From the NCBI GenBank assembly GCA_030141605.1, contig JAQGDQ010000100.1:568706-632705 (forward strand): a DNA stretch of 64,000 nt, given 5' to 3'. Below are positions 45,201-51,200 of this stretch, piece by piece. The position numbers and the translations under genes were made by a program. Positions within the stretch are counted from its first letter, which is position 1, and every line of letters begins with the position of its first letter. Below the pieces are notes generated by a model. That model had not been told where the DNA came from and ran no database searches. It saw only the letters and a list, made by a program, of their open reading frames with translations. This DNA comes from Tubiluchus corallicola. Its lineage: Eukaryota > Animalia > Priapulida.

Positions 45201-48200
45201 GCTCTAATACCTAACATATGGCCTTTATAAGCTAGTGACAGCCATCTTATCGGCCATCGTCGAAATGGCAGGCATACTAGATGACTTTCGATTAGCCTAT
45301 ACGCACATTTAATCACCTTAGTGGGCTGTAGCAAAGTTTCATGCTTTTTAGGCAAAAATGGGAAATTTTCACCATTCCGCTGACTATTACATTTCTTTTT
45401 TGTCAACTGACATCAAAATCCATTTTAGTAATTATGGGTTCATACTTTAAGAACTGTACACTTCGTGATGTATTTAATCAGATATGCACACATAAGAAGA
45501 TTTTTGTTAAAATTTGAATTAGTCGCAAACACTAGTTTAAAAGAGCGAAAATTTTGATATCGAAAAATTATAATTATTATTAATTAACGGTTTATTGAAA
45601 TCCATGGTCACAACTTTTAATATTAATGGAAAACAGAAGTCACGTTTGCATGTGTTACATTAATTTAAAAGAAAGTTATTGGTATGATTTCTATTAATTA
45701 CTTTGTTTCGGTTTGTAGTAATGAAGTAAGCACGACTTCTCTGTAATAGATGCATTATAAATTTGCAAGCAACAAATTGTAAACAAATGATATGACAAAG
45801 GCAGCTTTGCTTGTGTTTACTGCATGCTGCTATATGAACGATCTATCATTTGCTTTATTCTTAATGTTGCACTTGCAATGTGCTGCATATACAATAGAAA
45901 TTAAAGTAAATTTATATAAATTACACGTAACAATTATTGAGTTTGCATTTTCTCTTCCTGTCTGCTATATGAATCGTACGGTATGATATGAATTTATTAT
46001 TGCTATTTTCTCGTGTTGGTAACTAATGATTTCCAAAAGTGAAGCCAACCCACTCATCTACCTTGATGTACATTCATATAATTAGTAACTCTCGGTGAGG
46101 CATGCAGCAGATTACAGGCATAATAATTTAAATTTTAGCCTTGCAACAGGTCACAATAGGACAATTTATTGTTGTTTTAATAATGCATGTGCCCACACAG
46201 GCGATGCCACTACAGTAAATTACGCTGCTCTCATCAACTGTGATGTCATGGCAGTTGGGGATGAATTTAGTCGCAAACCCTTTGCCATTGCCTCCCAACA
46301 AGGTTCAACAATCAAAGAAGAAGTGTCTTCATCGTAAGTGAAATGCTTTAATAAAATGTTTCAAGACATGCTTTTAGACCAGAGATTTCACCGGTTGACA
46401 ACCTATAATTACAGAACAGAATAAAAGAACCGTATTCAAAGGGGGATAAGAGCAGATTGCAAGTAAGAAACTGTCTAGCAAACAATTAAGTGCTGAGTTT
46501 GTAAACTATTAACAACTGCCGGTGAAATGTTCTGATTAGTCCAAAACGTTTTGAAACATTTTAGTAAAATCTTAACTTCGATCGTTAAAGTTTATCAGTT
46601 AAAGCCGTGTCGGAACCTATGTATTATGTATGTATCACGAGACCCGGTGATACATACATAATACATAGGTTTCGCACCAATTAGAAAGCAACAGCTTTCA
46701 CTTGTTAATTTGAATCCTATTAGTGGTGATTTGGACCCAAAAGTTTGCAAAATGTCCGCATTCAAACAACAAGCCGCGCGGTTTTCATGCTACCAAAACA
46801 AAATCTTAAGTTACATTACTTGATACTCTACAATTTTTCCATACTGGGCGACTTGAGCTGAACTGATCTAACATGAGGCATGTGTTTTTCAAAATGTGCG
46901 TGAGCTGTTCAGTAACAAGCTACTTAGTAGGCGAAACTGTTTTTCTTTATAAACCATACACATGGTGAGAGTGGTTTAAGCTTTTTATTTCATAGAAGAG
47001 GAAGGCACCGCGGGAAAGAATATTGATAAAACACGCATCTCACATTAACGGAATTTATATTTAGGAACAATATAGATGTTATAATATTACATTACTTTTT
47101 AGTAGCTAAAAAGATAAATTAACTTTAAGTCGTGGTTATTTACAACCGTTTATAGAACGAACTATACCATATTCACAGGGCTGTTGAATCCGAATAAAAC
47201 CAGCCGGCAGACCATGTTATCCGATTCATACTTTTAAATTGACCATTTATTACATAATGCTTACCGAAAAAGTAAAAAGATTGCAAAAATGAGCTAAGCA
47301 AACGTAGAGCAAGTAGTTTACTGTCCATCCAGATCACTAAGAATAAAGTAGATTCAAACGCTTAAACGAAAAACAGCGCTGTTACAAGTTCGACAGCTGA
47401 CCGAAAAGTAAAACAGATTATTAGATTCATGGGCGTTCAATAAAGAGATCAATATAACGATTTACATAAGAATTACCTACCATTAGAAGTTTATTAGTGT
47501 ACTCCAATTCAAAACAATAAAAACATCAACATCATTGGAACTTTTACTGGAACATAAAATTTACGTGCTCTTTCTTTCCATCTGTCTGGATTCCCAGCGT
47601 GTTTCAGCTATACCTATAAATGTAAACAGTTCAAAAGTAAATTTTTTCACTGATAAAGCGCAAAAATCTGACGTAAAATCGTAAACTTCAAAATTGAAAA
47701 TGAAAGTTAGAATAAAGGAGTTGGATCCTAAACAATAGCTGGTATTCTTACCACATATGACAATGACATCTAACCCAGTTCAAGTGTTTCGTCATAAGTA
47801 GATCCAGTCCTGTCCAGTTCAGGCTAAATAAGGAGACCCAAAAAGATAAAGTGAATTTCGGAAACTCATGGGTATCGTTGCGAGGCGCCACAAATTTTTG
47901 AATGGATCTTCAGTGAACAACAATTTCTTGACCCAGTTACTCCCTTAATGGGAGCCCTGCAAGTGTAAATAAGGGATAATACGGCAGTTGGCGTTAGTTC
48001 ACTTACTTTTGCAACCATTTGAGAATTTGTGGCATCATCTTTACATCCATTTCCCATTAGCTTTTAAGTGCATAACGTGAATAACAATGCATGGTTTTTT
48101 ATTCTTATTTTTTGCCTGTGTATGTATTGAAATCGAATGCGTAGGCCTAACTGTGGACATCTGTGACTACCTATGTAGTAGTGATTAAACTTTTTTGCAG

Positions 48201-51200
48201 CATGTAATTCATGTCTTTATGCATGCACGAGTGATTGCATTTGGTTGCGTGAATCACTTAAAGTGATCGTTTTCGAGTTTCGGCTGTACGCACCTCTAGC
48301 ACACGAAGAGTTCAGAGAAATGTAAGTTGGTCTGGATTCTGGACAAGTTGCCCCTTGTTGCTTGAGTGCCTACATTTCAGGAGACGCTACGAAGGTGGAC
48401 TGGGCTATGGTGACTAACTGTGATTTCATCATAGTAGGCAAAGAGTTTAGTAGAAAACCATTTGCCATAGCCGTAAGAGAAGGCTCACAGTTGAAGGAAA
48501 AGCTTTCTTCTGCGTAAGTACTATTAAACGTTGATGATGCAGTTGGTCGAACTTGAGTTAGATGGGAGAGAGCCTTTTTTGCTAGTGTATTGTGCATGTT
48601 ATTTTTTATTTATATGCATGCGAGCACGTTTTTTTTCGTGAAAACTGTATTAGTAAACAAAGCGTGCGTGCGTGCGTGCGTGCGTGCGTGCGTGCGTGCG
48701 CGCGTGCGTGTGTGTGTGTGTGTGTGTGTGTGTGTGTGTGTGTGTGTGTGTGTGTGTGTCTGTGTGTGTGTGCATGTAAGATAAAAACATACGCAAAACG
48801 TATAAATAATTGTGTATGTTTAAACTCTTGCCGATGTTATATAATGGTGTCGTGTTATGCAGCATTAATGCAATGTGTGTAAAAGCATTTCTTTCTGTTG
48901 GAAATTCATTATGAAATTATTAAATACATACAATCTTAACCCTACAAGGCTACATGAAAAAGTGTCACTGCGTTGCCAAATGAAATACACACACTTCCGG
49001 CGTTATTATCATCGTGTACGAACTTCGTATTAAAAATTTCTTCCTCCATCTAATAGACGTCAGTGTCAGTATATTATGTATGTAGAATGTACTACTGATT
49101 GCCAGTGTTCATTGTCTACAAATGTTGATCGTAGACTGGAAATATTTATAGTTACCAATTAGTCAATTATCAAGGAATTTCAGAAACTGAATAACTTCTA
49201 ATATTAGGACACACAGAAGTCCCTACAGTGGGATCGTTAATTGCTCGAAAATGGACAACAAAAATCTGCAAAATTTGGGTGAAAATTATAATTAATAGCA
49301 GTTTTAGAGGTTAAATATCAAAAATAGACACTGCATATTCTTTCATAGTTATAATACTCGAATAGTTGAAGTAAAGTCGCACTCAAACGTTATTTATGGC
49401 ATAATGACGCTGAAACTGCAAGGGTTTAAACGTCAAATAGTTACGTCAAAACGTTAAACCTCAAACGTTATGTTGAGGCAGAGAGTCTTGACGCCCTGTC
49501 TTTGGCAGGCATTATAACTGCTGTATCTAAGGGTTACAGATCTATGGTCACATGCATATCTTGAAAACTAATATTTATTCGACATGAGTACTTGAATGCT
49601 AACGAATTTGACCCGGCATTTGGGATAGGTATATTTTACAGTTTATAAAATCCCGAATGTGGATTATCAAAATAGGCTTATGATCAAATTTAATAGAAAG
49701 ACGGCCTGAAAATACACTAGATCTTTCAAAAATCCTAATTTCCATTATCTTATGTGACGACTTGTACAGTTCATACCAATGTGCTTCGGGTCTGATATAA
49801 TTTAAATGAACACTTGTGTGATAGAATATTCACAAGAAGGCCTCATTGGCTATTTTGTAAAATTACGTTTAAGTTTGGGTTGAAATTACGGTCAAGTTTA
49901 GACAGTAAGGTAGAGAATCAAATTAGAAATGCCGGGATTTGGGAGGGTCGAAGTGAACGAGGGCTTCGCACAGCATGATATCCTGCACTTGGTCTCTACG
50001 TTCATGTGTCACGACGAAAAGTTATGTTCAAAATATGGCTGCACAGTCTATACTATGTTCGTGTGTGCATCTATGCGTGTCAATTTGGAAGTTATGCCTA
50101 ATGTTGCACATATTGTCGCATGGTTGTTTGAGTGTGCACCCTTATCCTTATAGGCAGTGCAAGTCAAGTAGAATACGCTGTTGTAAATCACTGTGAATTT
50201 GTGCCTGTTGGGGAGGAGTTCAGCAGAAAGCCCTATTCTATAGCTGTTCCTGAAGCATCACTGTTAAAAGAGAAAATCTCCACTGCGTAAGTAAACCATC
50301 TTGCATGTTCTCTAGCAAATCTTGCAAGTTTTCACAATGACAAAAGTACTTAAAGGATGATTTACTTGTAGCTGTACTGTAGTTTTAGCGATCTTGAATG
50401 CATTCTTGTAGGTATAGCGTAGTAATTATACATACGTATACGTATATCATGTAGGTATACTAGTGCTGGGCTTAATGCCATCTTCTAATGATCTTTGTTC
50501 TCCTAAATTTTTCTACTTCGCAAACTTTATTTAGATTCGAAAATTAGAGTTGCTGATACATAAACTATGAACTAAGATCAAGCAACAAAACCAAAACTTC
50601 AGAAAGACTTCTGCAACTAAATACAACCGCTTATTTGGTAATTGTGAATCTAAATTACATTTTCCAAAATAATCATAATTCAAATTAATTTAATGGCAAT
50701 TCCAGTTATTTAGCTTGCGTTGATACTGTTAATTCAAAATTATTCATTTTCAAACGGAGTGATGCCGCGAACGAGTGAATAAACGAGCAACACTGTCACT
50801 ACTAGAATTTGCACTGCGATGTGTGTGTCTCAATATCTTCTGAAGTTTTTGTCGTTTGTATATCCAGCTGCTGTTGAATGTTTCAATTATTATCTTTTCA
50901 ATCGCTTTTGTGGCTGTTTGTCCAGCTAATTCTTCTTAACAGTCATTTTTGTTCTTGCAATTGTTGTTGTTGTGGCATTGTTCAGTTGCAGTTTTTTTCT
51001 TGCTCCCATATTTTGGTGGCACAATCTGATTGATCTGATCGAGCAGTACAAAATTATTACTGTGGAAAAAATGTTAGAATATTTAAGACTGAAACAAAAT
51101 GTCACAAAAACCAGCTACGAAATTATAGCAAGGGAATCGTTTAAAAATATTGCTCGAATAAAAAACACCAAAAAACGATTTTACATAAGTACGTACAACT

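Follow-up and report, generated by a model that had tools for sequence, protein, structure and literature searches.

The gene for the co-receptor IR25a in the priapulid Tubiluchus corallicola contains three tandem versions of its exon 14, here termed A, B and C, and a full-length protein results only when one of them is taken at a time. The stretch of DNA that was analysed, below simply the window, is 64,000 nucleotides long (contig JAQGDQ010000100.1 of assembly GCA_030141605.1, positions 568,706 to 632,705 of the forward strand), and coordinates are counted from its first letter. The explanation that we regard as reasonably probable is that of one gene in which A is spliced in alone, with B and C as its likely mutually exclusive alternatives; judged from the sequence, such use of B is likely, that of C a little less. 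Three co-receptor isoforms of 972 amino acids (aa) would be the outcome, differing in just 44 residues of S2, a part of the ligand-binding domain. Two runs bear on the matter, X1, which behaves as low-depth DNA, and X2, which is guessed to be RNA, is about 95% identical to the window and is the one RNA-like run. The three copies are as follows.

46201..46333, + strand: exon 14a (copy A), 133 nt, with the cleft Asp retained; joined as 13-A-15 in an X2 contig
48381..48513, + strand: exon 14b (copy B), 133 nt, with the cleft Asp retained; partly covered by DNA run X1, with no differences
50154..50286, + strand: exon 14c (copy C), 133 nt, Ser replaces the cleft Asp

Three versions of one exon

The copies lie between the end of exon 13 at 44853 and the start of exon 15 at 51432, and each is flanked by AG, has a GTAAGT donor, is open in a single frame, and is entered in phase 1 and left in phase 2. 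That donor is present in all three cassette exons versus none of the 14 other donors. With three copies there are eight patterns of inclusion, and the only ones with a full open reading frame (ORF) are the three in which a single copy is used; when all three are skipped a stop follows after 2 codons, and double or triple inclusion leads to a stop 56–58 codons past the start of the cassette. A first-pass annotation, made from the letters alone, had placed three 133-nt exons here with these phases and splice sites, had numbered their neighbours 13 and 15 and had argued that only one-at-a-time inclusion gives a channel. All of this holds, and the numbering agrees with the full model of 17 exon positions.

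Are the copies old, and is each of them constrained? In peptide sequence A and B share 26 of 43 residues, B and C 24, and A and C 19 (44–60%), the corresponding nucleotide identities being 83, 81 and 80 of 133 (about 61%). Of the 43 columns 18 do not vary, the Cys and the VG.EFSRKP motif among them; this is the combination of strong divergence with retained Cys, motif and length that had been described at the outset. In the pairwise comparisons the proportion of differing synonymous sites (pS), which are near saturation, is 0.78, 0.70 and 0.95 versus 0.26, 0.32 and 0.24 for non-synonymous sites (pN), and the excess of synonymous differences is marked in every pair (Fisher p 8e-7, 5e-4 and 3e-12). 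Purifying selection on all three copies, for which the first-pass annotation had named a pairwise dN/dS comparison as the check, is what is found; the copies are old, and each has been kept as coding sequence. In a rough model of neutral decay the open frame and AG/GT survive in 4.6% and 3.9% of 5000 runs. When the three dN values are split arithmetically, the branch dN is about 0.22 for A, 0.10 for B and 0.19 for C and, as those of B and C are not above that of A, neither has decayed more than the expressed copy.

Self-comparison of the window reveals A, B and C without shared flanks. Beyond them and an inverted copy of C at 31498–31366, tblastn of the window gives no further match to the cassette peptides below E 0.1; the earlier survey had found the three and missed this fourth. 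B has Trp at a position where 100 of 102 homologues carry Tyr. The Ser of C stands at the position equal to D769 of Anopheles IR25a, where Ser occurs in none of the 102 homologues and Asp or Glu in 100, and the identity of C to 224 segments averages 19.1 of 43, below their 1st percentile (19.8). The thought that all three copies evolve fast relative to a consensus was dropped for A and B, the consensus being insect-heavy and the two lying at about the 5th percentile against the 224 segments.

Splicing of copy A

A 208-nt contig of X2 covers 44826–44852, 46200–46333 and 51432–51473, in other words exon 13 joined to A and A to exon 15 with B and C skipped, and in a second X2 contig exons 16 and 17 are joined at GT..AG. 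It is probable that A goes into the message by itself and that B and C are passed over. The three spliced isoforms of the first-pass annotation accordingly stand on different footings, the junctions of A having been seen in a probable RNA contig and those of B and C not. Silence of X2 on B and C is not absence, since contigs drop rare forms. Contig depth in X2 (40 for A, 44.6 for exons 16–17) was left unused, being no guide to the ranking of parts within one gene. The A contig starts at the final 31-mer that would be common to A and B, which has the look of a graph fork and was considered as a sign of B; it was discounted because the contig extends 45 nt into exon 15 and not about 30. Copy A in X2 has six differences from A of the window, the displayed ones implying a minimum of two amino-acid changes, so between populations or sister species the expressed exon is still variable.

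The same exon in other animals

Is the exchange of this exon confined to one animal? A profile of A, B and C, compared with 1.84 billion representatives, gave 249 matches, the best 150 of which are considered here (the B peptide alone as query yielded one candidate and no match). The top match, KAF0308662 from Amphibalanus amphitrite, has two tandem versions of the exon-14 segment in one model. In five of ten clusters looked up, both a ‘canonical’ and an ‘alternative’ form of the exon are present; the other five, Lepeophtheirus, Tigriopus, Tachypleus and two more, have one form, as do four full-length oyster and two Potamilus records. RefSeq isoforms X1 and X2 of Pollicipes (XP_037068272/3) are equal in length and their 18 differing residues are all inside the exon (760–801). 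Equal-length RefSeq isoforms differing solely inside the cassette exon are also found in Penaeus chinensis (XP_047486548/9), P. vannamei (XP_069970702/3) and P. japonicus (XP_042864327/8), each with 14 differing residues at 774–813, and in Panulirus ornatus (XP_071516700/1), again with 14, all inside the exon (771–810). Scylla (isoform X5 versus X1–X4) and Amphibalanus (KAF0308662, XP_043206928, QCO69762) have both forms too.

The crustacean pair and the priapulid cassette share gene, segment and exon borders, and in both the isoforms are equal in length and the variable positions overlap, 14 of the 17 positions that vary in crustacean pairs varying among A, B and C as well (p 0.013). They differ in that the crustaceans have two copies and the window three, in a gene outside the arthropods, and in that position 1 is Asp or Glu in every crustacean form and not in copy C. 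In the literature, with subscription journals outside the search, no description of an IR25a alternative exon was found. Splicing and exons are unmentioned in the accessible parts of the crustacean chemoreceptor papers PMC6150509, PMC10390513 and PMC13372173; the same is true of splicing in that of PMC7067487 and of exons in that of PMC6497305, where ‘splice’ occurs once. The earlier belief that no such cassette had been described thus survives as regards papers, and does not as regards uniqueness: the two-way form is already present, unremarked, in public crustacean annotation, and what is new is the presence of three copies and of the cassette in a non-arthropod gene.

The second profile match, an ORF termed P0122, is identical to B at 30 of 43 residues versus 23 for A and 20 for C, groups with B at 98/81 in the exon tree and shares with it seven residues, none of which occurs in more than 6 of 43 other segments and one of which is absent from all of them. 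It is likely a B orthologue, and from its ends it would appear to be a genomic exon with the same borders. Further exon-like ORFs (P0123, P0129, P0197, P0138, P0203, P0208, P0300) are more divergent versions of the segment, some with a one-residue insertion, and are possibly alternative copies in other lineages.

What the exchange would alter

Residue 1 of the cassette, equal to Anopheles D769, aligns to the amino-binding Glu of GluK1 (‘MESTS’), and residues 12–41 align without gaps to residues 205–234 of a GluA2 construct. With the numbering offset that we assume for GluA2, the conserved Cys, the positions of M708 and Y732 and the start of helix J are inside the exon; residue 1 and, on that numbering, the positions equal to M708 and Y732 all vary among the three copies. 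Residue 39, acidic in A, B and C, aligns to GluD1 D782, which we take to be part of the dimer cation site. The exchanged stretch would accordingly begin with the cleft Asp, take in the conserved Cys and the hinge strand, and end in the first half of a helix that faces the neighbouring subunit.

In the accessible part of a cryo-electron microscopy (cryo-EM) preprint of 2026 on insect IR8a and IR25a complexes (bioRxiv 10.64898/2026.09.30.755715), the co-receptor clamshell is locked and ligand-free and the role of D769 is structural; the ‘beam’ residues named there for partner choice map to exon 13, outside the cassette. With such a locked clamshell a change of partner contacts or gating is a more likely consequence of the swap than a change of ligand choice, and the packing of the lobe, the upper dimer contact or gating is what it would probably affect. 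Isoforms would then be distinguished by the packing of the locked lobe against tuning subunits, or by gating coupling, and not by ligand choice. The crustacean pairs, which differ solely inside this exon, strengthen the first-pass view that it is mutually exclusive in IR25a; the interchangeable S2 modules envisaged there fare less well as ligand-binding modules with a locked clamshell, and structural or interface modules is the better description.

Known systems and the choice of one copy

What could confine a message to one copy? The introns between the copies are 2047 and 1640 nt, and introns of 1.6–2.0 kb rule out steric exclusion. Dscam1, where splicing works with a docking site and selectors, resembles the window in that one is chosen among several homologous exons, and differs in having tens of copies to the three here; competing RNA pairing of its type went undetected in the window. 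The insect nicotinic acetylcholine receptor alpha6 subunit has a three-way exon 8 cluster, and so is likewise a channel subunit with a three-way choice of homologous exons, though it is a Cys-loop receptor and a different domain is affected. AMPA receptors possess flip/flop exons, a pair towards the back of the domain and directly ahead of M4 in GluA1–4 (PMC13520880, accessible part), which are also tandem-duplicated, mutually exclusive exons altering a short S2 segment of a channel of the ionotropic glutamate receptor family; flip/flop is two-way, of vertebrate origin and in a ligand-gated subunit, and the window cassette is three-way and in a co-receptor. The latter is no member of the flip/flop set, since exons 15 and 16 intervene before M4 and the gene is IR25a. 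The statement in the first-pass annotation that flip/flop affects a wholly downstream segment needs correction, for by alignment and GluA2 numbering the cassette presumably overlaps the first six or so residues of it.

Mutually exclusive exon clusters of Caenorhabditis elegans, as far as the accessible part of PMC4165533 goes, provide a counterpart in frame behaviour, being homologous, equal-length exons whose length, as here, is not divisible by 3; in that survey 14 of 19 such clusters were dependent on nonsense-mediated decay (NMD) and 11 of 29 clusters carried UGCAUG. Given the frame rule, NMD is a likely back-up here too, and would remove mis-spliced messages. There are 7 TGCATG sites in the 1800 nt that flank the cassette exons versus 6 in the 6742 nt flanking other exons (p 0.009), which hints at control of the RBFOX type, and the choice of exon would be set by splicing factors, of RBFOX type if the motif is a guide. 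Within the A–B intron there is also a near-perfect 28-bp hairpin (46611–46674), perhaps the remnant of a small transposon.

The gene and its surroundings

The rest of the gene, and a duplicate that lies within it, are placed as follows.

27257..27335, + strand: exon 1 (predicted; start codon and signal-peptide-like stretch), in-frame join to exon 2
34890..39487, + strand: constitutive exons 2–9 (amino-terminal domain and S1); tblastn, AG/GT ends, open frame
34890–35060, 35532–35807, 36142–36323, 37666–37722, + strand: exons 2–5
37901–38215, 38337–38453, 38656–38754, 39293–39487, + strand: exons 6–9
40238–40436, 41415–41555, 42983–43232, + strand: constitutive exons 10–12 (end of S1, M1–M3, start of S2); tblastn
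44654..44853, + strand: constitutive exon 13 (co-receptor extra loop or beam, N-glycosylation site; upstream donor of the cassette)
51432–51498, 51631–51755, 52227 to stop near 52536, + strand: constitutive exons 15–17 (end of S2, M4, C-terminus)
30654..32858, − strand: inverted duplicate of 48811–50995 in predicted intron 1, 2.2 kb, 96.3% identical

The predicted model is a single IR25a gene with 17 exon positions, giving 972 aa with A, B or C, and it aligns end to end with Anopheles IR25a (392 identities). A query with exon 12 retrieved 685 proteins, the best 120 of which are mostly named IR25a or, in nematodes, GLR-7, with 72–80% identity to 119 of these and 52% to the exception, an oyster GluR. 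Every exon besides exon 14 is present once in the window (tblastn with five full-length homologues), in line with the initial view of one gene without nested paralogues. Exon 1, outside RNA cover, is the sole candidate in a scan of 14.5–34.9 kb for an ATG with a hydrophobic stretch and a phase-1 donor. Residues equivalent to Anopheles R520, F700, N710, D711, E717 and V728 are all retained. The extra loop or beam of co-receptors, for whose features PMC6472016 and bioRxiv 10.64898/2026.09.30.755715 are the sources in the parts accessible, is present with its N-glycosylation site and the IR25a-type F700, D711 and V728, and of the cleft residues R520 is kept and D769 is kept in A and B and is Ser in C. 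Pfam places PF10613 on exon 9 and PF00060 on exon 12, with no match for the single amino-terminal-domain exon scanned or for any of the three short cassette peptides. In gene trees built with the cassette columns dropped, and with no named annelid, nemertean, brachiopod or onychophoran row, the gene sits among IR25a rows and apart from one IR8a-like row, the latter labelled from its sequence. Fourteen arthropod rows form a clade at 97/99 with the window gene outside, and a grouping of mandibulates with the window gene is rejected (p 0.0008). It groups with three molluscs at just 85/73 and a position beside the arthropods also fits (p 0.10), so on these trees the cassette-bearing gene is placed outside the arthropod clade.

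The inverted duplicate differs from 48811–50995 by 57 substitutions and 5 indels, and both copies have a GT/GCGT microsatellite at one edge. Its version of exon C, at 31498–31366, is identical at 133 of 133 positions and has GG in place of AG at the acceptor. No differences within exon C compares with 3.8 expected (p 0.02; scan-corrected p 0.035), and the change nearest to the exon is the duplicate’s own acceptor, not that of C. The duplicate is probably real DNA, since X1 holds variants of both versions and the duplicate’s own flank. It could form long double-stranded pre-mRNA over exon C.

Shortly 5′ of exon 13, at 44184–44514, is a tandem repeat with a unit of about 52 nt. X1 contig depth is about 28–31 over exons 15–16 (51136–52011) versus mostly 2–8 on nearby single-copy parts; this peak has several loose ends, and extra copies elsewhere or library bias may be involved. 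Upstream, at about 5389–18100 on the + strand, is a gene for a class C G-protein-coupled receptor, GABA-B-like by eye (ANF_receptor match with E 9e-10, weak 7tm_3).

Weighing the alternatives

A number of observations count against three-way exclusive splicing. On its shorter side the 13-A joint is supported by 27 letters, when 31 are required of a bridge, and the A-15 joint, which satisfies this requirement, was pieced together from two results; at about 95% identity X2 comes from another population or species, and among the contigs of this one RNA-like run none is on B or C. Inverted-repeat and duplex scans gave no docking/selector duplex that beat shuffles, a weak test in a single species (the best shared duplexes, at -16.0 and -17.0 kcal/mol, were equalled in strength by 12 and 4 of 25 shuffles, respectively). 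The TGCATG comparison was post hoc, and its significance is lost over 4096 hexamers (2e-5 uncorrected). C is without the cleft Asp and has the longest branch (0.46), and no orthologue of it is among the best 150 of the 249 profile matches. As to the crustaceans, their isoforms are mostly predicted gene models, and the shared variable positions may merely mark tolerant sites.

Several of these points would be accommodated if A and B formed a two-way cassette and C, once functional, were now silent or decaying, a real though minority possibility. To the lost Asp, the greater divergence and the want of an orthologue among those best matches or of RNA cover can be added the inverted duplicate of the region around C, placed in predicted intron 1, which could mask C by base-pairing. 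C nonetheless shows, compared with A as with B, a pN that is far lower than pS; it has retained a consensus donor, its length, the Cys and the hinge motif, and has remained free of differences from the duplicate over 133 nt (3.8 expected) with a change nearby in the duplicate’s acceptor. That A alone is in use, with B and C recently retired pseudo-exons that still look intact, is improbable: it fits with A alone being seen in the only RNA-like run, and does not fit with the exact lengths and consensus donors of B and C, with the non-synonymous branch of B being the lowest and its likely orthologue 70% identical, or with the long maintenance of the same swap in crustaceans. Could the copies instead come from separate paralogous genes or be an artefact of assembly? 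The nearby 2.2-kb duplicate shows that local duplication occurs, and yet this is hardly credible with the other exons single-copy, with A, B and C about 61% identical and lacking shared flanks, with X2 connecting 13, A and 15, and with X1 matching B without differences. A different kind of proposal, compatible with three-way splicing, is that the swap retunes a working ligand pocket so that isoforms differ in the co-receptor’s own ligand. The exon does begin at the acid that binds the alpha-amino group and hold what would be the M708 and Y732 positions of GluA2, all three of which vary; the locked, ligand-free cleft with its structural Asp in the accessible part of the insect cryo-EM work (bioRxiv 10.64898/2026.09.30.755715), and retention in this gene of the beam residues behind the cleft lock, make it unlikely.

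Origin and significance

Whether the priapulid copies and the crustacean pair go back to one duplication event was approached with exon trees. The insect and crustacean canonical exons form a clade (99/98) without any window copy, and groupings of them with window copies are not rejected. B, C and P0122 group at 97/84 in one exon tree and 83/47 in another, the Hyalomma row being left out of one of these trees. A weak set (83/89) unites the window copies with crustacean alternative and chelicerate exons, so that an ancient shared duplication is conceivable, and over its 43 columns the exon tree expresses no preference between independent and shared origin (all tests p 0.08–0.36), which counts against any firm statement. 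We lean towards a triplication that arose independently of the crustacean two-copy cassette, at an exon with old borders. The single exon of chelicerate IR25a (P0131, P0038, P0104) is slightly nearer to the crustacean alternative than to the insect-type form (e.g., 27.8 vs 25.8 of 43), a hint that the insect-type exon is perhaps derived. A bolder and rather speculative picture, which we hold tentatively, is that IR25a has a hot spot of splicing at exon 14, which was duplicated repeatedly or already in the protostome ancestor, that cell-type isoforms choose different tuning receptors, and that in the priapulid a third isoform without the cleft aspartate is maybe silenced by the inverted intron 1 copy via double-stranded pre-mRNA.

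Across the protostomes IR25a is regarded as a single, unvarying co-receptor that serves smell, taste and the sensing of temperature and humidity. If its exon 14 is swapped in crustaceans and three-way in a lineage outside the arthropods, the identity of the co-receptor would itself be a regulated variable. The role of the co-receptor ligand-binding domain is an open question raised in PMC6472016 (accessible part), and natural isoforms that differ in 14–24 residues would offer a direct test of it. If true, there is also a practical side, as in lobster, shrimp and barnacle two proteins may be mixed by the antibodies, probes and knock-downs aimed at IR25a.

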